From positions 8,775 to 72,774 of the forward strand of contig CAZBVU010000003.1 in the NCBI GenBank assembly GCA_964495355.1: a stretch of DNA of 64,000 nucleotides. The letters run 5' to 3'. Positions 6,758 through 43,235 of the stretch are shown here, piece after piece. Every line of letters begins with the position of its first letter. Position 1 is the stretch's first letter. Position numbers and translations under genes: made by a program. The stretch is from an uncultured Oscillospiraceae bacterium. Its GTDB lineage: Bacteria > Bacillota > Clostridia > Oscillospirales > Oscillospiraceae. The notes under the pieces are model-generated. The model had not been told where the DNA came from and did no database searches. It worked only from the letters and a program-made list of their open reading frames with translations.

Positions 6758-7849
6758 ATGGATGAAGAAGTAAAGCTTTGTCTCAGCTCCCTTGCAGTCA
6801 TACTCCCCTCTCTGAATCCGGATAACAAGTTTCTGGACGTTATAGACGGTCTGGACGAGCACGGATTTGAGCATATTGTTGTTGTAGATGATGGCAGTGA
6901 TGAGGAGCATCAGAAATATTTTGAGACGGCCAAGAATGACCATCCCAAGGTTGTTGTATTGCACCACGGTGAAAACAGGGGCAAAGGGCGCGGCCTGAAA
7001 ACCGCGTTTGCCTATGTGGAAGAGAATCTGCCGGAGGTTAAAGGCGTTATCACCATTGATGGCGACGGTCAGCACCTTGTGGAGGATATAATCGCGTGCG
7101 GCGTGCGTATGCTGCAAGAGGGCAACAAAGTTGTTCTTGGGTGCAGAGATTTCAACGCCCCGGGTGTCCCTCCGAGAAGCATTGCCGGCAACAAGGCAAC
7201 TGCGCGTCTTTTCCGTCTGTGCTACGGCATCAAGCTTTCCGACACACAGACGGGTCTGCGCGCCATCCCCAGTGAATACCTCGCTCCGTTCTGCGGCATT
7301 GAAGGCGAACGCTTCGAGTATGAGACGAATATGCTGCTGAATATGAAGCGGATGGGCATTGACTTTTATGAGCAGCCAATCACAACGGTATATGATCCGG
7401 AGGATTATAGCTCACACTATGATGCGGTAAAAGACTCATGGCGTATATTCAAAGTGATGTTCAAGTTCCTTGTCAGCTCACTCGGTTCGACCGTAATTGA
7501 CCTGACGGTATTTTATCTGGTTATGCGCTTTTTCGGCGCAGCCGCCGGAAAGTACGCTGAGCTGCTGGCCACTGTCGTTGCGCGTGTGCTGTCCTCATTT
7601 GCAAACTTCAACGCGAACAACAGCGTTGTTTTTGACAACAAGAAGGGCTATAAGCGGGCGCTTGTGCGTTACTACTGCCTGTGCATCCCACAGATGCTCG
7701 TCTCCGCCGGACTTGTCACGCTGATAAATGGTCTGCTTTCAAATTCCGCCCCCATTATCGCAACTGTAATAAAATTTGTTGTTGATATCTGCCTGTTCTT
7801 TATCAGCTATCAGATTCAGCGCGAATGGGTGTTCTCACAGAAGAAATAA
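6758..7849 (+). CDS. bifunctional glycosyltransferase family 2 / GtrA-like membrane protein
   Basis: The N-terminal GT-A part has VVVDDGSDEE and ITIDGDGQH (DXD-type). The C-terminal ~130 aa form four hydrophobic helices, as in GtrA. RBS GGAGGA upstream. Confidence 0.75.
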   Translation: MDEEVKLCLSSLAVILPSLNPDNKFLDVIDGLDEHGFEHIVVVDDGSDEEHQKYFETAKNDHPKVVVLHHGENRGKGRGLKTAFAYVEENLPEVKGVITIDGDGQHLVEDIIACGVRMLQEGNKVVLGCRDFNAPGVPPRSIAGNKATARLFRLCYGIKLSDTQTGLRAIPSEYLAPFCGIEGERFEYETNMLLNMKRMGIDFYEQPITTVYDPEDYSSHYDAVKDSWRIFKVMFKFLVSSLGSTVIDLTVFYLVMRFFGAAAGKYAELLATVVARVLSSFANFNANNSVVFDNKKGYKRALVRYYCLCIPQMLVSAGLVTLINGLLSNSAPIIATVIKFVVDICLFFISYQIQREWVFSQKK

Positions 7850-12349: not shown

Positions 12350-14137
12350 ATGAAAATCACCTATTTGCTGCCTATAACCCTGTTCGCGCTTATATTCGTG
12401 TTCTTTCTCGGTCTGCCCGACCTTAGGCGGTGCACACTGCCGGGGCAGTACGAGAAATGCACGCGCAAGCTTGACCGCATTGACGCGCTGATAATGGTTG
12501 TGATATCGCTTATCTATGCCGCCGTTTCCTACACAGGTCTCGGCAACACCGAATCGCCCGAAAGCTTTATCCGGCTGGACGGTGAAAGCGCCGTTATCGA
12601 GTTTGACGATGCCGTATACCCCAGTGAGATCACCATGTTTTTGGGTGTCGGCGACGGAAACTACACTATCGACTTTTCAACCGACGGCATGGAGTGGGAA
12701 TGTATCGCAGATTTCGACGTGGACTATGTGAATGTTCTGAAATGGAATTCGCTTACCCCCACGACTGATATCGTGCCGCGCTATGTGCGCATCACCGGCA
12801 CAGGTGCGTCGTACATTGCCGAAATTGCATTCTATGATGGCGTTGGTCTGCTTATTCCCGCGCACGGTCAGGGTTTGGGCGCAATGCTCACGGATGAACA
12901 GGACATAGCATATAGCCGCCAGACCTTCCTCAACTCTGCATATTTTGATGAGATATATCACGCGCGCACTGCGTGGGAGCATCTCAACAATGTATCACCG
13001 TATGAGATATCACATCCGCCGCTCGGCAAGCTGATTATCAGCATAGGCATTGCCCTTTTCGGTATGACGCCGTTCGGATGGCGCTTCATGGGTGTGCTGT
13101 TCGGTGTGTTGATGCTGCCGATAATGTATGTGATGGTTAAGAAGATGTTCGGCGGGCGCACAGTGCCTACGCTGTGCATGGGCGTGTTTGCGGTGGATTT
13201 CATGCACTTTGTGCAGACGCGCATCGCGACCATAGATACCTACGGCGTGATATTCATCATGCTGATGTATCTATTCATGTTTCTCTTTGTCTCAGAGCAG
13301 GCAGAGGCGCGGATATCCCGCCGTGCGCTGGTATTTCTGGCGCTGTCCGGCGTGTTCTTCGGCATGGGCGCGGCATCAAAGTGGACGGCGATATACGCCG
13401 GTGCGGGTCTCGCGGTCATCTGGGGCGCATACTGGGTGATAAACCACAAGCTGGGCTTCAAAGCCTTTTTGAAAAATGCACTCTTCTGCGTTGGGTTTTT
13501 CATCATCGTCCCCGCGCTGATATATTATCTCAGCTACACGCCCTACGGAACTGCCGCCGGTATGCGCGGCCTTGGGATGTATTTCAGCCGCGATTACGCC
13601 GATATCGTGATAAACAACCAGAAATTCATGTTCGGCTACCACTCCGGCCTTGTTGCGGAGCATCCGTATTCCTCCGTTTGGTATCAGTGGGTACTGGATG
13701 TGCGCCCCATACTCTACTATCTCGACTACTTCGATGATGGGACGCGTTCCAGCTTCGGTGCATTTGTCAATCCTGCGCTGTGCTGGGGCGGGCTGTTGAG
13801 TCTGTTTGTTCTGATATACACGGCGCTCTTCCGCGCTGACAAAACCGCCGGTTTCATCCTTGTCGGGTATCTGGCACAGCTTTTGCCGTGGGTGTTCGTC
13901 AAGCGGCTCACCTTTGAATATCACTACTTCCCCTGCACTGTTTTTCTCGTGCTCTCGCTTGGATATACGTTCAAGCTGATCCGGCAGGGCAACAGGCATT
14001 GGCGCTGGTATCTCGGCGGTTTTGCGGCCGTGTCGGCGGGGCTGTTCGTGCTGTTTTATCCCGCGCTTTCCGGTCTGGTCGTGAATAACGCCGCAGCGAC
14101 AAAACTGCTGGGCTGGCTTCCCACATGGCCGTTCTAA
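12350..14137 (+). CDS. PMT-family (GT39-like) lipid-carrier-dependent glycosyltransferase with a discoidin-like insertion in the first outside loop
   Basis: Loop motif DEIYHARTAWEHL...YEISHPPLGK followed by more than 9 TM helices. Residues ~70-175 (PRYVRITGTGASYIAEIAFYDG) look like an F5/8-type-C beta-sandwich. Confidence 0.7.
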   Translation: MKITYLLPITLFALIFVFFLGLPDLRRCTLPGQYEKCTRKLDRIDALIMVVISLIYAAVSYTGLGNTESPESFIRLDGESAVIEFDDAVYPSEITMFLGVGDGNYTIDFSTDGMEWECIADFDVDYVNVLKWNSLTPTTDIVPRYVRITGTGASYIAEIAFYDGVGLLIPAHGQGLGAMLTDEQDIAYSRQTFLNSAYFDEIYHARTAWEHLNNVSPYEISHPPLGKLIISIGIALFGMTPFGWRFMGVLFGVLMLPIMYVMVKKMFGGRTVPTLCMGVFAVDFMHFVQTRIATIDTYGVIFIMLMYLFMFLFVSEQAEARISRRALVFLALSGVFFGMGAASKWTAIYAGAGLAVIWGAYWVINHKLGFKAFLKNALFCVGFFIIVPALIYYLSYTPYGTAAGMRGLGMYFSRDYADIVINNQKFMFGYHSGLVAEHPYSSVWYQWVLDVRPILYYLDYFDDGTRSSFGAFVNPALCWGGLLSLFVLIYTALFRADKTAGFILVGYLAQLLPWVFVKRLTFEYHYFPCTVFLVLSLGYTFKLIRQGNRHWRWYLGGFAAVSAGLFVLFYPALSGLVVNNAAATKLLGWLPTWPF

Positions 14138-36554: not shown

Positions 36555-36583
36555 TTGTACTTAGAATAATGTTGTGGTATAAT
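36555..36583 (+). promoter_or_regulatory. sigma-A-type promoter with extended -10
   Basis: TTGTAC (36555-36560), 17-nt spacer, TGgTATAAT (36575-36583). Confidence 0.55.
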
Positions 36584-36584
36584 A

Positions 36585-36800
36585 GGTGCAAATTGAATAG
36601 CCGCTGCGGTGCGAAGCGCTTACGCGCAGAGCCTAACAAGGAATCCGGTGTGAATCCGGAGCAGTCCCGCTGCTGTATATGGTGACGATGGCATATTAAA
36701 CCACTGAGATATTATTCTTGGGAAGGTTTGCCGGAGGATGAGCCATGAGTCAGAAGACTTGCCGCAATGGCTGAAAGTCAACCGTCCCGAGGAGGATGAG
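36585..36800 (+). promoter_or_regulatory. cobalamin (B12) riboswitch aptamer
   Basis: Conserved core GGAATCCGGTGTGAATCCGGAGCAGTCCCGCTGCTGTA (36640-36677). CCACTG...TGGGAAGG (36701-36726). B12-box-like AGTCAGAAGACTTGCC (36748-36763). Confidence 0.85.
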
Positions 36801-36813
36801 GCTGGCCTGAAAA

Positions 36814-36890
36814 AAGCACAGAGAAATCTGTGCTTGGGTTTGTGTTGCGTCATAGTCTCCATCTCTCACGGGAATGGAGATTTTTCATTT
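36814..36890 (+). terminator. riboswitch expression platform with two candidate attenuator hairpins
   Basis: AAGCACAG-AGAAAT-CTGTGCTT followed by GGGTTTGTGTT (36814-36846). TCTCCAT-(11 nt)-ATGGAGA followed by TTTTTCATTT (36856-36890), immediately before RBS GGAGGA and the ATG at 36902. Confidence 0.55.
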
Positions 36891-36901
36891 GGAGGAACAC
36901 C

Positions 36902-39900
36902 ATGAAAAAACGCATTACCTCTCTTGCACTGGCGCTGATAATGCTGTGCGGCATGATGCCCATGGGCGCATTTGCCGACGATGCTGTGCCGGTGGAAACC
37001 GTCGTTATCGAAACACCGCCCCTCTCTGTCGAGCCGGAGCTCACCCCCGCACCCGCTCCCACGCCTGCATCCGAGTCGGAATCCACCCCCGCGCCCGCTA
37101 CAAGTGCAGAACCTGCACCGGACGCAGAATCTACCGTTGAACCTGTGCCAAGTGCAGAGCCGACAGTTGAGCCTACACCTAGCGCCGAACCCACGCCTAG
37201 TGCAGAAGAAGATGACGCAGATGATGAAATCGCGCTGCTTGGCGGTATTTCCACCTACGCACTGAGCGCATTTGATGAGTCCCTGCTCAACGGCATCCCC
37301 GCCGCGGCAAGCAACTCCGGCTGGAAAAGCGACGGCAGCATGATAGTGTCTGGCAATAAGGGGCAATTTTACAGCTCTGCCACGCTGACGCTGACATTCA
37401 CAACGGATGCGCATATATCTTTTCAGTACAAAGTCTCCTCCGGAAGAAGTGATTATTTTTCCGTCAAGCACAACTCAACGGCTATAGTCAACAATGTATC
37501 CGGTGTTACCGACTGGGTCGGCGTTGCCGTTGATGTGAAGGCAGATGATACCCTCACGTTTGTCTACAGAAAGGGCGGCAACTACAGCACCGGCGTTGAT
37601 GACCGCGCATATCTCACCGGCTTTTCTGCGGGTGAGCCCACTGTAGTCACATTCTACGCCAACAACGGGACTGACGACAGCACCACGCAGAACTTCTACG
37701 GCACAGCCGCGTTGAATGCAAACACATTCACCAAGGATCACGCCGTGTTTGATGGCTGGGCACTCACCGCTGATGGTGAGAAGAAGTATGACGACAAAGA
37801 GACCATAGATAAGCCCACCGAAGCACTTAGCCTGTACGCACTGTGGGCAGATGCAAAGGTCGTCAGCTTTTATAACGGGACAGGCGGGCTTATCGCGTCC
37901 GTAAACATCCGCACCGGCAGTGCCATCCCCGTTGACGCTATTCCCTCGCCTGCAAGCAACGGATATATATTCTCCGGCTGGCGCGTTGACGGCGCGGAAT
38001 TCAACACTGCCGCGCCGATAACAGCAGATATCACCCTCACCGCCGCGTGGACGCCCATCGAATACACTGTGCGCTTCTCGGCCAACAACGGCGCGGGCAG
38101 TATGGCCGATATGGCCGGTCTGAAGTACGGCGAAAGCTATTATCTGCCCAAGTGCAGCTTTGCCAGAGAGGGTTATACTTTTGCCGGCTGGGGCAGCTCA
38201 TCTTACACCAGCACCGCTTCATACGCTGATGAAGCGGCCGTTTCAAACCTCAGTTCCACAAACGGCGCAGTCGTTACGCTGTACGCTGTGTGGTACGGCA
38301 AGCAGGTGCCGGTCACGGTCGATCTGAACTATGACATTGAAAACCGCGTAAGCACACGCACCTGCGTTGTAGGTCAAAACTACAACTACATCTACAACGA
38401 GGCAACCGGCAGCGCAAAGTATTCATCGCTTTCCGACCCGAAGCGTGACGGATACAGATTCCTCGGCTGGTACACCGCCGCAGAGGGCGGGGATAAAATC
38501 ACCACCTCGGATAAATTCACCTCTACTGACGCTGTGACCATGTATGCCCACTGGGTAAAGACCGTCACCATAACATTTGATGCAAACGGCGGCAGCTGCT
38601 ACACCAAAACAAAGGTCATAGATGAGGGCAGTACCTGCTCCGGCTTGCCCTCGGCAAGTCTCAGCGGCAAGACCTTTATCGGCTGGTTCACCGAGATAGA
38701 CGGCGGCCAGCAGGTAACTACCGACACGACCTTTACCACCGACACTATCCTTTATGCGCACTATAAGAACAAGCAGTACATATTAGTGTTCAACGCGAAC
38801 GGCGCTGACGGTGAGATGGAGAGCATCACCGCAGATTCCGGCGTTGAATATACCCTCCCGCCCTGCTCTTTCACGCGTGACGGGTATAATTTCAAGCACT
38901 GGTCAACCTCCTCTTACGATTCAAGCTACTCCACGCGCTATTCCGACGGCGGCACGATAGAATACACCGCAAGCTATGATAACGCGAGATATAACCTATA
39001 CGCCATATGGGAGCAGACGGTTTTCGGCAAGGCGTTTGACGCGATAAAAGCCGCCCTGCCTGATAATAACACCGTTTACACCACCGGTGCACTGAAGCTC
39101 CCCTCCGGCGGTGATGGTTGGAGCGTGGAGTACAGCAGCGATAACAGCAGCTATATAAGCTCCACCGCCGAGGTTCTCACTCTCCCCACCAGCGGCACAA
39201 AAGCCGTCACCATAACCGCGACAGTGACTGACACCGCAAACGGCACAAGCCAGACGCGCGATTACACCCTCACGCTGTACTCTGCCGAGGCAAAACAGGC
39301 CGAGGACACGCTGAAAGAGGCGCTGGGCAAGCTGACAGGGAATTTCACGCCGGTATATGGCACAGATAAAAACGCCTGCCGCGCGCTGGAAGCCCTTCTT
39401 GAAAGCAAGGGCTATGAGGGTATACGCGTGTCCGTGAAAACTCCCGCCGCCGATGATTGCGCGTCTATCGCCGCCGATGGTACTATAAGCTATCATTTTG
39501 ATGACAAAATGACCGGCAGTGACTCCTATCTGCGGCCGGTATACTCTTTCACGCTGTCCGGCGTGACACTGGATAAGGAGCTTCAAACCCGCCTGACATG
39601 GGATCTGGGCAAGGCGCAGGCGCGCATTGATGCACTCGCCGCGTCAATCACCGTCCCCAAGGAGCTTTCAGCCGATGATACGCTGACGCTGCCGAAATAT
39701 CAGCTAAAATCCGGTATTGACCCTGACACTGCCGATTACAGCGATTACACGCAGTTTGACTCATGGGCAACCATCACCTGGGCAGCCGCAGACGCAAGCG
39801 GTGAGGACAGCGAAATACTGAAAATCGGCGCATCCGGCGGCAGCTCCGGCTATTACGCGCCGCACACCGTCACCATCGCGCAGCCGAAAGACGATACCAA

Positions 39901-42271
39901 CGTCACCCTCACGGCCAAGGCCACATGGAATAAGGACAACAGCGTATATGCAAACATGGTCTACACCGTCAAGGTAAAGGGCAGTGACACGGATATTAAA
40001 GAGCAGATGCGCAAGCAGCTTGAGGCAAAGCTTGATGCCGCGCTGAAATCCCCCGGGCTTACGGATATCGTAACCGGCGGCGCACTGGACACAGGCAACG
40101 TTGTAAATGACATACGCTTCCCCTCAACCCGCGACTTTGACGTTAATGGCCAGAAGCAGCCCATTACCATAACCAGCAGCAATGAAAGCGTCATCCCCTC
40201 CCCCGATGTGAATAACGCCGTGCGTGCAAATGTCTACCGCCCCGCCCCCGGTGAGGAGGCTGTGGATGTCACACTGACCATCACCATAACCGACACGGAG
40301 ACCGGCGCTGTCGCGTCGCGTGATGTCACCGTAACCGTGCAGCCGCTGACAGATGCTGAACTGGACGCGGAAATCGCGCTGATGGAGCAGGTAAAAGCGC
40401 ATTATTTTGACGGCATTAAGGGCAAAAACACCAATCCCGATGAGATAACCACCGACCTCACGCCGTTTTCCGAGGTGTATCTGGACGAAGGCGGGAATCT
40501 TGTGTGGGTGTATAAGTATGCCCAACAGGTCGGTCACGGCATTGTGCCTGTCGCGCTGGACGGATGGTACGCCTCCGAACAGTGGCGTCTGTTCAAATCC
40601 TCCAACGCGCAGGTGATAAGCCACGAAAGTCTGGCCGTCACGCGCGATAAGGAGCACAAATCCGTTACCGTGGAGAGCTGTCTCTCCAGCGAGGCTTATG
40701 GCAAGTATGCCGCGCGTTATCCCGGCAATGCAAAGCTGCAAAAGCTTTATAATCAGCCGGTTTCCGCAAAGCTGACTGTCCTCGGCACTGACCCAACAAG
40801 TGATGATGCCGACGAAAAGAAACTGAGCGTGCTATTCACCCTCTCCGACAACGGCGCTCCGTGGATAAGCTGTGCATACAGTGACCTTGGAGAGGGCGTG
40901 ACAGTGTATGATGTGTTCTACCGCGCGCTGTCTGAAAAGGGCTATGCAGCGCTGGGCGGCGCATTTGTAACCGGCATAGTAAAGCCTGACGGCACAGTGC
41001 TCAGCCAGAAGGATCGCGGCGAATATTCCGGCTGGATGTATGCCGTTAACGGCAGCATCCCCGCCGTTGTAATGAGCCAGTACTTCCTCTCTGACGGTGA
41101 CAGTATCCACTTCTTCTACACGGATGATTACACCGCGCTATACGGCAAGCAATCCGAATACACCGTGGATGAGGTGATAAAGCTTATCGACGCCATAGGC
41201 GAGGTCACCATTGCCAGTGGTGACGCGATATCCGCCGCAAGACGCGCGTATGAAACGCTGACGCAGGCGGAGAAGGCACAGGTCAGCAACTACAACATCC
41301 TCAAAGAGGCTGAAAAAGCCTATGCCGCGCTGATAAAGAAAAACGGCGAAATTCTGGATATATACACCACAACCGGCGACTATATCCAGCGTGATGAGGA
41401 GAACACCCTCTGCAAATTCGGCAGTGAGTGGTTCATCCTCGGCCTTGCCCGCAGTGGGCGCGACGTGCCTGAGGAATATATAGAGGTGCTGGAGGCGTAT
41501 GTGTCGGTGCGTGCGGACGATAATGGCCGCCTGAGCGCCACAAAGCCGACAGAAAATGCGCGTGTGATACTCACGCTAACGGCGCTGAGTCTCGACCCGG
41601 CTGACTTTGGCGGGGCTGATCTGCTCGCCCCGCTGGGCGATATGGCGTATATCGCGATGCAGCCCCTCTCCGGCGCGATATACACGCTTCTGGCGCTAAA
41701 CAGCGGCGATTATGACGTTCCCGCCGCGCCTGACGGCAAAAAGCAGACCACGCGCGAGGCGCTTATTGAGTATCTTCTCGACAAGCAGCTTGATGACGGC
41801 GGCTGGGCGTTCTCCGGTGACACCGCTGAGGTTGACGCGACTGCAATGGTGCTGCAAGCACTCAGCGCATATTATGACCCCGACAGCAAGGACGCGCTGA
41901 CAAAGCGCGTGAACGCGGCGGCAGAGGCGGCAATCGCGCTGCTGTCTGATATGCAGAGCAGCACCGGCGGCTATGAAAGCTACGGCACACTCAACAGTGA
42001 GTCGTGCGCACAGGTCATAACGGCAATAACCGCATACAGCATCGACCCGCACACTGACAAGCGCTTTATCAAAAACGGTATAAGCGTTGTGGACGCGCTT
42101 TGCTCATTCTATGTGGAGGGCGGCGGATTCAGCCACACACTCACTGCTGAGCTCGATACACTCGCCACCGCGCAGGGCTATTACGCACTGACCGCGTACT
42201 ACCGCCTGATAAACGGTGAAGCCGCGCTATTTGATATGCGCGACACCGAGGAATATACCCTCGCCGCGTAA
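36902..42271 (+). CDS. secreted 1789-aa multidomain protein; putative extracellular corrinoid-binding protein
   Basis: Start at MKKRITSLALALIMLCGMMPMGAFA|DD (Sec signal peptide); the 24 codons upstream in the ORF track lie inside the attenuator. Domain order: P/T/E/S-rich linker, beta-sandwich-like region, six Listeria-Bacteroides-type repeats, Ig-like repeats, DUF4430-like domain, prenyltransferase-like alpha/alpha toroid. No LPXTG, SLH or choline-binding anchor seen. Confidence 0.85.
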   Translation: MKKRITSLALALIMLCGMMPMGAFADDAVPVETVVIETPPLSVEPELTPAPAPTPASESESTPAPATSAEPAPDAESTVEPVPSAEPTVEPTPSAEPTPSAEEDDADDEIALLGGISTYALSAFDESLLNGIPAAASNSGWKSDGSMIVSGNKGQFYSSATLTLTFTTDAHISFQYKVSSGRSDYFSVKHNSTAIVNNVSGVTDWVGVAVDVKADDTLTFVYRKGGNYSTGVDDRAYLTGFSAGEPTVVTFYANNGTDDSTTQNFYGTAALNANTFTKDHAVFDGWALTADGEKKYDDKETIDKPTEALSLYALWADAKVVSFYNGTGGLIASVNIRTGSAIPVDAIPSPASNGYIFSGWRVDGAEFNTAAPITADITLTAAWTPIEYTVRFSANNGAGSMADMAGLKYGESYYLPKCSFAREGYTFAGWGSSSYTSTASYADEAAVSNLSSTNGAVVTLYAVWYGKQVPVTVDLNYDIENRVSTRTCVVGQNYNYIYNEATGSAKYSSLSDPKRDGYRFLGWYTAAEGGDKITTSDKFTSTDAVTMYAHWVKTVTITFDANGGSCYTKTKVIDEGSTCSGLPSASLSGKTFIGWFTEIDGGQQVTTDTTFTTDTILYAHYKNKQYILVFNANGADGEMESITADSGVEYTLPPCSFTRDGYNFKHWSTSSYDSSYSTRYSDGGTIEYTASYDNARYNLYAIWEQTVFGKAFDAIKAALPDNNTVYTTGALKLPSGGDGWSVEYSSDNSSYISSTAEVLTLPTSGTKAVTITATVTDTANGTSQTRDYTLTLYSAEAKQAEDTLKEALGKLTGNFTPVYGTDKNACRALEALLESKGYEGIRVSVKTPAADDCASIAADGTISYHFDDKMTGSDSYLRPVYSFTLSGVTLDKELQTRLTWDLGKAQARIDALAASITVPKELSADDTLTLPKYQLKSGIDPDTADYSDYTQFDSWATITWAAADASGEDSEILKIGASGGSSGYYAPHTVTIAQPKDDTNVTLTAKATWNKDNSVYANMVYTVKVKGSDTDIKEQMRKQLEAKLDAALKSPGLTDIVTGGALDTGNVVNDIRFPSTRDFDVNGQKQPITITSSNESVIPSPDVNNAVRANVYRPAPGEEAVDVTLTITITDTETGAVASRDVTVTVQPLTDAELDAEIALMEQVKAHYFDGIKGKNTNPDEITTDLTPFSEVYLDEGGNLVWVYKYAQQVGHGIVPVALDGWYASEQWRLFKSSNAQVISHESLAVTRDKEHKSVTVESCLSSEAYGKYAARYPGNAKLQKLYNQPVSAKLTVLGTDPTSDDADEKKLSVLFTLSDNGAPWISCAYSDLGEGVTVYDVFYRALSEKGYAALGGAFVTGIVKPDGTVLSQKDRGEYSGWMYAVNGSIPAVVMSQYFLSDGDSIHFFYTDDYTALYGKQSEYTVDEVIKLIDAIGEVTIASGDAISAARRAYETLTQAEKAQVSNYNILKEAEKAYAALIKKNGEILDIYTTTGDYIQRDEENTLCKFGSEWFILGLARSGRDVPEEYIEVLEAYVSVRADDNGRLSATKPTENARVILTLTALSLDPADFGGADLLAPLGDMAYIAMQPLSGAIYTLLALNSGDYDVPAAPDGKKQTTREALIEYLLDKQLDDGGWAFSGDTAEVDATAMVLQALSAYYDPDSKDALTKRVNAAAEAAIALLSDMQSSTGGYESYGTLNSESCAQVITAITAYSIDPHTDKRFIKNGISVVDALCSFYVEGGGFSHTLTAELDTLATAQGYYALTAYYRLINGEAALFDMRDTEEYTLAA
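37640..39013 (+). other. six tandem Listeria-Bacteroides (Flg_new-type) repeats within the giant protein
   Basis: Each ~70-aa unit ends with an aromatic-G-W...(L/M)YA(x)W signature: FDGWAL...LYALWA, FSGWRV...LTAAWT, FAGWGS...LYAVWY, FLGWYT...MYAHWV, FIGWFT...LYAHY, FKHWST...LYAIWE. Confidence 0.75.
40817..41136 (+). other. DUF4430-like (transcobalamin beta-domain-like) module of the giant protein
   Basis: GVTVYDVFYRALSEKGYAALGGAFVTGIVKPDGTVLSQKDRGEYSGWMYAVNGSIPAVVMSQYFLSDGDSIHFFYTDDY fits the pattern as I recall it (SGWMYxVNG...YxLxDGDxIxxxYT). Confidence 0.7.
41350..42220 (+). other. prenyltransferase/squalene-cyclase-like alpha/alpha-toroid module of the giant protein
   Basis: SEWFILGLARSG, QLDDGGWAFSGD, ATAMVLQALSAY, STGGYESYG, CAQVITAITAY and VEGGGFSH recur at roughly helical-hairpin spacing. 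Confidence 0.6.
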
Positions 42272-42344: not shown

Positions 42345-43235
42345 TTATTCCATCTCTGCGGCGATGATGCGCATTGTGCTCTCGGCGATATTCAGCACGG
42401 TGTCCAGCTCCATATCACCATAGACATAGGGCAGGACGCTGTCTATAAACACCTGCTCAATCTTGTTGTAATTGTGCGTGTGCAGTGTGGCGCTGTCGAT
42501 CAAACTATGCACGTTCTCGGTCATCTGGGTGGAATTATAAGATTTAAGAACGGCTTCAAGTGCATGGATATTGCCGGGGTAGCATATACGCCGTTGGTCG
42601 AAGTCCTTTATCTGCCATTCCTCTGTGAGTATAAGGCGAAGAAAGCCCCATGCGTTTTCCTTGTCCGTGCACGTTTTGGGTATGAGATGCATGCTGTGAT
42701 CACCGCAGAAAAGACTTGTGAAGTTATCTCCACCGTCGCTGCCGTCATCAAGCGGAAGAATGGTTTTAGGTGCATCATGGGCATCAACTTCCAATGGCGT
42801 TACCGCAATCTCAGCACCGTCGGGGCGATATATGCGAACGGCATACGTCTCGCTGTCCGCCGATTCATCTGAAGTTCCGACAAGAAAATAGAATTTACCC
42901 GCACCGTAGCTCACATTTATTGCGCGGTCTTTCCCGCCTAGTGTAGTGATTATATCTGCGTCAGATAGTGAATGGCTCTCCGTGCCCTTTGTGTAACCCA
43001 TGACGGTGAGAGCGGGTACATCGTTTTTCGTGCCGCAGACAAATATGTGCTCACTGTCCGCTGCAACACCGGTTATGCTTCCGTCAATGCCGAGTGGGTA
43101 GACGCTTTTCGCGTCTGCGCGGTAATAGTATTCCACGTCTTTATTTGCTTGATTGACGGTGTTTGGCTCGGCACTGCAGGCGCATAACAGCATTGCAACA
43201 ACCAAAAACAGCGATATAAAGGTACGTTTTTTCAT
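42345..43235 (-). CDS. hypothetical lipoprotein with a solute-binding-protein-like C-terminal part
   Basis: Signal peptide plus lipobox-like MLLCAC|S. The C-terminal ~110 aa (ENAWGFLRLILTEEWQIKDF...) resemble the tail of ABC substrate-binding proteins. Confidence 0.4.
   Translation of the reverse strand: MKKRTFISLFLVVAMLLCACSAEPNTVNQANKDVEYYYRADAKSVYPLGIDGSITGVAADSEHIFVCGTKNDVPALTVMGYTKGTESHSLSDADIITTLGGKDRAINVSYGAGKFYFLVGTSDESADSETYAVRIYRPDGAEIAVTPLEVDAHDAPKTILPLDDGSDGGDNFTSLFCGDHSMHLIPKTCTDKENAWGFLRLILTEEWQIKDFDQRRICYPGNIHALEAVLKSYNSTQMTENVHSLIDSATLHTHNYNKIEQVFIDSVLPYVYGDMELDTVLNIAESTMRIIAAEME

Follow-up and report, generated by a model that had tools for sequence, protein, structure and literature searches.

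The gene described here occupies positions 36902..42271 (+) of a 64 kb stretch of DNA from an uncultured Oscillospiraceae bacterium (contig CAZBVU010000003.1), hereafter called the window, and according to open reading frame (ORF) calling and translation it encodes a secreted multidomain protein of 1789 amino acids. The last ~490 residues form a C-terminal module, in which a transcobalamin-like beta domain of the DUF4430 family is followed by a helical linker and a single alpha/alpha toroid, and a cobalamin riboswitch precedes the gene. This beta-linker-toroid module probably binds corrinoids extracellularly, the synthesis of the protein being repressed through the riboswitch, and the ligand would then be handed over to an importer. 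The folds, the riboswitch, and the family-wide links of the module with cobalamin riboswitches and with energy-coupling factor (ECF) transporters that carry a CbrT-like S component are established here.

In the proposed mechanism the riboswitch would permit expression under B12 limitation and switch the gene off at sufficient intracellular cobalamin, so that the protein would be made only when B12 is limiting. After secretion the C-terminal module would capture vitamin B12-type cobamides, possibly also cobinamide, outside the cell, and, with transcobalamin as a guide, beta domain and toroid would enclose the ligand between them. From there a membrane importer of the ECF-CbrT type would receive the corrinoid. 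In many relatives such an importer (ECF with a CbrT-like S component) and a second secreted DUF4430 protein are encoded by the operon of the module itself, and in the window organism the importer would be encoded elsewhere. The 1789-residue protein is probably associated with the cell surface. Because riboswitch and ECF-CbrT-like links recur across relatives, the predicted capture of corrinoids at the cell surface is well supported by comparison. Thus the corrinoid-binding role suggested in a preliminary description of the window is supported as a prediction and has been strengthened by comparative genomics.

Cobalamin Riboswitch and Linked Transporter Genes

The riboswitch aptamer at 36590..36780 (+) matches Rfam family RF00174 over model positions 1-189/189 with 111.7 bits (E 3.8e-27), the gathering score being 31.5. 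It lies on the strand of the gene, in its 5' leader, with 121 nucleotides between the riboswitch end and the ATG at 36902, and since the genes on both sides of 36902..42271 lie on the opposite strand, the riboswitch governs this one gene only. Riboswitches of this class recognize cobalamins; the genes under their control are typically those for cobamide uptake, cobamide synthesis, or B12-independent isozymes, and a genome has only a handful of them.

The context of the module was surveyed in 84 related loci, 68 of which were informative, having an intact 5' gene end. A same-strand cobalamin riboswitch was found upstream in 47 of the 68, where by estimate chance would give about one such locus; in 35 of these 47 it lies within 600 nucleotides of the start codon, and in most of the others it stands ahead of an intervening gene of the same operon. 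The tally combines a home-made covariance model (R1), built from three riboswitches, with Rfam checks at the gathering score, and counts strong R1 matches or Rfam matches at that score; the sole exception is locus L064, counted on a weak, 5'-cut upstream match (21 bits, E 0.0044; R1 only). R1 under-detects, since Rfam found riboswitches in 4 of 12 R1-negative loci, and Rfam left 3 of 14 weak R1 matches unconfirmed (L013, L036, and L055). The tally also depends on simple ORF calls, and genes are frameshifted or split in a few loci.

Full-length orthologues of the window gene were identified in L007, L008, L020, and L041. Each is a single gene preceded by an Rfam cobalamin riboswitch (58-125 bits), and the L008 orthologue is 52% identical over 1781 amino acids. 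At L003 and L004 an operon follows the riboswitch, beginning with the module protein and a second secreted DUF4430 protein and continuing with an EcfT-like protein, a duplicated ATP-binding cassette (ABC) ATPase, an ECF S component, and a second EcfT-like protein. When the 84 loci were searched by phmmer with the L003 operon proteins, the partner DUF4430 protein was recovered at ~45, the ATPase at 41, the EcfT-like proteins at 34, and the S component at 33. The L003 S component has a single relative among solved structures, 6fnp chain A (E 1.3e-6), which is CbrT, the S component of an ECF transporter importing cobalamin and cobinamide (PMC5997447).

Three loci possess two cobalamin riboswitches each, one ahead of the module gene and another ahead of the partner DUF4430/ECF genes: L045 (3203-3467 and 9551-9776), L050 (2409-2653 and 8730-8926), and L064 (1-77 and 9522-9755, the second being a strong R1 match downstream of the module gene). 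Therefore binder and transporter can be separate B12-controlled transcription units, and the stand-alone gene of the window represents a natural variant of a dispersed regulon. A riboswitch of another class, c-di-GMP-I (41.3 bits), was observed at L014:1786-1867, in a locus without a cobalamin riboswitch.

Transcobalamin-Like Module

The preliminary description, made from the sequence alone, located the module at 40817-42220. This corresponds exactly to residues 1306-1773 counted from the ATG at 36902, and all the motifs it quoted (EYSGWMYAVNGSIPAVVMSQYFLSDGDSIHFFYTDDY, SEWFILGLARSG, QLDDGGWAF, STGGYESY, and VEGGGFSH) are present in the translation. The B12 riboswitch, the DUF4430 signature, the helical linker behind it, and the toroid that follows in the same polypeptide were likewise recovered by the Rfam match given above and by the Pfam, AlphaFold, Foldseek, and family comparisons given below. 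The signal goes far beyond chance, and the module is kept at 40-63% identity in hundreds of proteins.

The beta domain (DUF4430 / SLBB) was delimited by Pfam and AlphaFold/Foldseek to residues ~1319-1415 (40856..41146, +). PF14478 (DUF4430) matches residues 1332-1407 with 37.4 bits against a cut-off of 23.8 when the whole protein is searched (E 3.7e-9), and with 39.4 bits when the module fragment alone is searched. For structure comparison the domain was modelled alone by AlphaFold from a 21-sequence alignment (predicted local distance difference test, pLDDT, 93.3; predicted template modelling score, pTM, 0.83), and the PDB was searched with Foldseek. The top 14 matches consist only of beta domains of B12 carriers and of one DUF4430 structure, 3u7z from Ruminococcus gnavus; they include human and bovine transcobalamin, intrinsic factor, haptocorrin, and the isolated human transcobalamin beta domain, both apo and with cyanocobalamin (5no0, 5np4). 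The best match is 7qbe_A, with a template modelling (TM) score of 0.62 and a root mean square deviation of 2.2 Å over 85 columns. Foldseek probability was 0.85-1.00 for ranks 1-11 and 0.35-0.54 for ranks 12-14, and all lower ranks stayed below 0.1. That DUF4430 is transcobalamin's C-terminal domain, as the preliminary description stated, agrees with these matches and with the published domain layout of TCN proteins, which have DUF4430 at the C-terminus (PMC4350170). The beta-domain profile (A4), searched against PDB sequences, found only 3u7z, weakly (E 0.29), and did not reach transcobalamin; therefore the transcobalamin link is founded on Pfam family membership and on the comparison of structures.

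The transcobalamin-like clade of SLBB domains is characterized by an additional beta-hairpin, which the beta-grasp core carries as an insert behind its helix (PMC1796856). In the model of the window domain a helix (model residues 17-27) is followed by two short strands (31-34 and 38-42) and then by the remaining core strands, and by a reading of secondary structure, rather than superposition, the two short strands may be taken as the hairpin insert, which would give the domain the signature of the clade. The family alignment contains three conserved motifs, namely, GNYI.SI on the hairpin, SGWMY..NG, and GD.I.F.YTDDY. By the same kind of reading, again not by superposition, these appear to fall on the elements that contact B12 in transcobalamin, as named by Burroughs et al. 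(PMC1796856).

The conserved linker unit covers residues ~1416-1500 (~85 residues; 41147..41401, +), as defined by the AlphaFold model, where its helices span model residues 147-222, and by the alignment. It follows the pattern ..VI.LI.AIG.VT..SG.AI..AR.AY..L....K..V.NY..L..AE..Y..L, in which many positions are near-invariant across the family, and no Pfam family was matched by the unit. In relatives a linker unit of ~55-85 residues is present 1-9 times, for example, in the giant relatives P0121 and P0124.

The single alpha/alpha toroid comprises residues ~1501-1789 (41402..42268, +), according to AlphaFold, Foldseek, and the family profile. In the model of the 514-residue module (pLDDT 86.3, exceeding 90 across most of the toroid) it is all-helical over fragment residues ~234-495, equal to protein residues ~1509-1770. 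As a single sequence it remains below the Pfam cut-offs, with 19.1-21.6 bits for SQHop_cyclase_C (cut-off 26.1) and 16.4 bits for Prenyltrans (cut-off 26.5). The 45-sequence family profile of the whole module (A1), searched against PDB sequences, reached only class II terpene cyclases (7xq4, E 3.3e-9; squalene-hopene cyclase 1gsz, E 5.1e-8) and not transcobalamin. Invariant positions in the family alignment include R242, Q312, R343, D370, Q410, E425, R446, and K449 (fragment numbering), which are candidates for lining a corrinoid site between the beta-hairpin/SGWMY face and the cavity of the toroid. In Foldseek a probability of 1.00 was obtained for drimenyl diphosphate synthase, squalene-hopene cyclase, prenyltransferase beta subunits, transcobalamin, and intrinsic factor; transcobalamin 2v3n ranked 3rd (E 1.6e-4) and 2bb6 12th, intrinsic factor 3kq4 ranked 23rd, and prenyltransferase beta subunits reached TM scores up to 0.59.

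The likeness of the toroid to SQHop_cyclase_C and class II terpene cyclases in sequence, and to prenyltransferase beta subunits in structure, can also be read as the mark of a terpenoid/prenyl enzyme or of a binder of lipids or glycans (polyprenol, peptidoglycan, or host glycan), in a protein that is mainly an adhesin or wall enzyme with DUF4430 as an accessory. The large repeat regions of the protein (Flg_new and aBig_2), which are typical of adhesins, are in line with such a role. Class II cyclases require a two-toroid beta-gamma pair, and the window protein has one toroid only. Their DxDD site reads E-V-D-A-T here and D-x-D-[A/M] in the family, where position 1 is Asp in at least 90% of aligned relatives, position 3 is an invariant Asp, and the fourth position is given as [A/M] from the window sequence together with the family consensus. 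Furthermore, its extracellular location keeps the protein apart from isoprenoid diphosphate substrates. On these three grounds the enzyme reading was set aside, and since the broader view would leave the riboswitch, the constant association with DUF4430 (in cis or through the adjacent gene), and the CbrT-like transporter unexplained, we consider it improbable.

Capture of cobalt or another metal ion, instead of a corrinoid, deserves mention because the deposit title of 3u7z, the one bacterial DUF4430 protein with a solved structure, reads "putative metal binding protein". Cobalamin riboswitches often control cobalt transporters. In the study of Burroughs et al. CbiO/CbiQ-like neighbours were noted as well (PMC1796856). 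The S component of the related operons, however, matches CbrT and not a metal-type component, the two-domain architecture mirrors the corrinoid clamp, and the cavity of a ~290-residue toroid is oversized for an ion, which makes a metal ligand highly improbable.

Points against Corrinoid Capture and Alternative Ligands

The prediction of corrinoid capture has to be weighed against a number of observations that speak against it. Of the two transcobalamin fold types announced in the preliminary description, the beta domain stood in Pfam above its cut-off, and the toroid did not, given the sub-threshold scores for SQHop_cyclase_C and Prenyltrans and the absence of Cobalamin_bind (PF01122) from the five Pfam families matched at E <= 0.1. 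The comparison of structures matched both folds to transcobalamin; the toroid, however, was about equally near to cyclases and prenyltransferases, and the Foldseek E-values, being alike for all three, do not separate these groups. Therefore the fold class of the modelled toroid is certain, whereas a closer relationship with the alpha domain of transcobalamin in particular is uncertain; in sequence it stands nearer to toroids of the squalene-cyclase type than to those of transcobalamin. The pTM of the module model is 0.64, and the relative placement of beta domain and toroid is thus only moderately confident.

Further points of this kind concern genomic context and the literature. At 21 of the 68 informative loci no riboswitch was found at the curated thresholds, and no cobalamin riboswitch was detected at the module loci L005 and L006, which lie in DNA resembling conjugative elements, a fact that also favours the enzyme or adhesin alternative. 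Neither a phmmer search of the window with the proteins of the L003 operon nor a Pfam scan of 30 of its ~58 ORFs (the larger ones, spanning 28-50764) found a transporter or B12 gene. The protein itself has no recognisable C-terminal anchor in its translation. In the searchable literature, which leaves most subscription journals outside, no corrinoid-binding data were found for any bacterial member of the family, and in Lactobacillus sakei split homologues of the two domains were proposed to bind heme (bioRxiv 10.1101/864751).

The last of these points leads to the idea that the module binds another tetrapyrrole, either heme or an early corrinoid precursor, and that the riboswitch link reflects a broader tetrapyrrole or cobalt economy. 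Besides the L. sakei proposal, it may appeal to the transport of cobinamide by ECF-CbrT (PMC5997447) and to the wording of Burroughs et al., who allowed "B12 or its precursors" (PMC1796856). Against heme stand the cobalamin riboswitches carried by 47 of the 68 loci, the match of the linked S component to CbrT, and the lack of heme-related genes near the window gene among the ORFs scanned; we therefore find this alternative unlikely, and corrinoid capture at the cell surface is retained as the preferred explanation.

The missing anchor, the missing adjacent transporter, and the stand-alone riboswitch units also gave rise to a variant of this explanation, in which the window protein and its orthologues would be released "corrinophores", soluble or loosely held by the wall, capturing cobamides away from the cell and possibly stripping them from competitors or host carriers, and would bring them to an importer of the ECF-CbrT type encoded elsewhere. 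We grant this variant a small but real chance.

Comparison with Known Systems

The closest precedent is found in Burroughs et al. study (Burroughs, Balaji, Iyer, and Aravind 2007, Biol Direct 2:4, PMC1796856), where a transcobalamin-like SLBB clade was recognized in Gram-positive bacteria. Fusions of SLBB with an alpha/alpha toroid, placed "either N-terminal or C-terminal", were already described there, with signal peptides and anchors, along with paralogous SLBB neighbours and CbiO/CbiQ-like transporter genes as a usual, not obligatory, context. For these fusions cooperative B12 binding and B12 scavenging were predicted, and animals were proposed to have acquired transcobalamin from such bacteria (PMC1796856). 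The window protein has the same two domains, with the toroid C-terminal as in Bacillus gi 42782379, and shares with the 2007 fusions the character of secreted or surface proteins with accessory extracellular domains and predicted B12 scavenging. Its relatives also share the second SLBB gene and the CbiO/CbiQ-like (ECF) neighbours; among the window ORFs such an operon was not found by phmmer with the L003 proteins. In contrast to the 2007 fusions, the window gene is monocistronic and anchor-less and has a very long N-terminal repeat region. Burroughs et al. made no report of the link with the cobalamin riboswitch, of an S component like CbrT, or of the helical linker and its repetition, and in the same searchable literature as above no report of an association of riboswitch and CbrT was found for the family.

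With transcobalamin, intrinsic factor, and haptocorrin the window protein shares the fold of the beta domain, the DUF4430 family, the alpha/alpha toroid partner, and the extracellular location. According to Pfam and the model, the eukaryotic layout of an N-terminal alpha6/alpha6 domain (PF01122) and a C-terminal beta domain is absent from it. Unlike the mammalian carriers, it has beta-then-alpha order and a ~85-residue helical linker and is embedded in a 1789-residue chain; its toroid is unmatched by Cobalamin_bind and nearer to the squalene-cyclase type, and its binding of B12 is a prediction. Class II terpene cyclases and prenyltransferase beta subunits share with it the alpha/alpha toroid fold and QW-like repeat motifs, and the family profile (E 3e-9) supports homology of the toroids at the superfamily level. 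From class II cyclases the window protein differs by its one toroid, incomplete DxDD, extracellular site, and sub-threshold Pfam scores.

In Lactobacillus sakei the beta domain (Lsa1839) and the alpha domain (Lsa1840) accompany the ECF genes Lsa1836-1838, and heme scavenging was proposed from docking and uptake phenotypes (bioRxiv 10.1101/864751). This system likewise joins a secreted beta domain and a toroid with ECF in a Gram-positive bacterium and follows the operon logic of L003, L004, and many other relatives, and it differs by having the two domains as separate proteins and heme as the proposed ligand; the preprint mentions the riboswitch 0 times. Among gut bacteria the surface B12-binding lipoproteins BtuG, BtuH, and BtuJ of Bacteroides (PMC13616437) resemble the role proposed here, that is, extracellular cobamide capture ahead of a membrane transporter, whereas their folds are unrelated and they are outer-membrane lipoproteins feeding a TonB-dependent transporter. 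In the same review of 2026 extracellular B12 capture in Gram-positive bacteria was called "entirely uncharacterized" (PMC13616437).

Family Size, Architecture, and Mobility

At least 525 relatives of the 514-residue module were found in a 90%-identity protein collection and at least 569 module loci in species-representative genomes, and an exhaustive search of 50%-identity representatives gave 9,097 clusters with the threshold set at E <= 1e-3 and 2,607 with it set at E <= 1e-30. Among the matches listed, almost all named records belong to gut Clostridia, with Oscillospiraceae, Acutalibacteraceae, Lachnospiraceae, Anaerovoracaceae, Christensenellaceae, and Terrisporobacter as named taxa, and many members of the family are giant proteins of 1,000-3,600 amino acids. 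The loci include one of Terrisporobacter mayombei (L070) and one of Lentihominibacter faecis (L023).

Architecture was surveyed in 259 fetched relatives, where beta-linker-toroid is the commonest arrangement. In 139 proteins the beta domain precedes the toroid, and in 38 the order is the opposite; some relatives have two toroids, and ~80 of the 259 have no detectable beta domain in cis. The beta-then-toroid order, which the preliminary description regarded as reversed, is thus the norm among the relatives surveyed, and it was already published in 2007. Most relatives end with a sortase-like xPxTGD signal, a hydrophobic stretch, and KRK, and others with a plain membrane anchor, SLH domains, or dockerins, and from these C-terminal anchors a cell-surface family is evident. 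The closest relatives of the window protein also stop right after the toroid, without an anchor.

Close module homologues, P0052 and P0013, are encoded at L005:7001-10269 and L006:7001-10578, respectively, each with a small DUF4430 partner gene, inside DNA resembling integrative/conjugative elements, with ArdA, DUF3849/DUF3852, Toprim, an SNF2 helicase, serine recombinases, and a pemK RNA as markers. As the module occurs there in element-like DNA lacking a detected riboswitch, it appears to be horizontally mobile in gut Clostridia. One module locus, L054, which has a riboswitch and a DUF4430 partner, comes from a contig assigned by binning to Alloprevotella (Bacteroidota); this could be either a binning error or a cross-phylum transfer.

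Protein Layout, Leader, and Neighbouring Genes

Upstream of the start codon the reading frame is already open from GTG 36830. A GGAGG ribosome-binding site (36891-36895, by eye) precedes the ATG at 36902, which is the start used also in public gene calls for two metagenome contigs. The N-terminus of the protein looks like a typical signal peptide (MKKRITSLALALIMLCGMMPMGAFA, then DD; 36902..36985, +), predicted by eye from the translation, and a lipoprotein N-terminus was set aside because IMLC differs from the canonical lipobox. A Pro/Glu/Ala/Thr-rich spacer extends, as read from the translation, from the signal peptide to about residue 110.

The accessory extracellular repeats found by Pfam (37640..40100, +) include six stretches of Flg_new (Listeria-Bacteroides) repeats with 166.8 bits, whose span of residues ~250-700 is approximate, being extrapolated from matches at 321-386 and 556-620, and two aBig_2 (atrophied Ig) domains at residues 723-792 and ~1063-1145 with 40.4 bits. 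Pfam gave no credible family for residues 100-250, 850-1000, and 1150-1305 or for the linker, and NCBIfam gave nothing useful for the C-terminal module. In the translation the protein stops straight after the toroid.

The expression platform between the aptamer and the start codon (36781..36901, +) was described by hairpin scan, fold energy, and reading of the sequence. A terminator scan found a terminator-like hairpin with a T-rich tail at 36814-36835, and a second hairpin is visible by eye, in which 36856-36862 pair with 36874-36880, followed by TTTTTCATTT, whose T-run stands just ahead of the ribosome-binding site. The fold of 36781-36905 has an energy of -43.7 kcal/mol (z = -2.35). In this predicted fold GAGGAGGAUGAGG (~36789-36801) pairs with CUCCAUCUCUC (~36856-36867), and the latter C/U-rich segment could alternatively pair with the downstream AUGGAGA or with the GGAGG site. 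The modelled leader gives hints of a switch that may combine termination with hiding of the ribosome-binding site. A possible sigma-70-type promoter (TTGTAC, 17-nucleotide spacer, TGgTATAAT) was tentatively recognized by eye at 36555..36583 (+); the consensus promoter scan did not report it, because its -35 hexamer fits only 3 of 6 positions.

Directly downstream and convergent with the large gene is an ORF of 296 amino acids (42345-43235, -), which is present in public gene calls too and for which no Pfam family was matched, nor any in those calls. Elsewhere in the window a GT2/GtrA-type glycosyltransferase (6758-7849, +) and a protein-O-mannosyltransferase-like (PMT) membrane protein (12350-14137, +) are encoded, which are candidates for glycosylating secreted or surface proteins.

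Significance

The window gene is an added member of a computationally defined and very large family, in which it stands out only by lacking an anchor, by being monocistronic, and by its very long repeat region at the N-terminus, and beyond the anchor-less, monocistronic layout it brings no new principle. The importance lies with the family. Cobamides are a contested resource in the gut, and only for Bacteroides has the machinery that captures them at the surface been described in detail; the present family offers a clean and cheap test of the 2007 prediction where Gram-positive mechanisms are missing. The outcome would also bear on the use of extracellular receptors by ECF transporters and on a possible origin of animal transcobalamins in Gram-positive bacteria. 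If the corrinophore variant were true, ECF transporters, which are normally regarded as independent of extracytoplasmic binding proteins, would need a transcobalamin-like receptor in gut Clostridia, and the bacterial stock of the animal B12 carriers would be identified.

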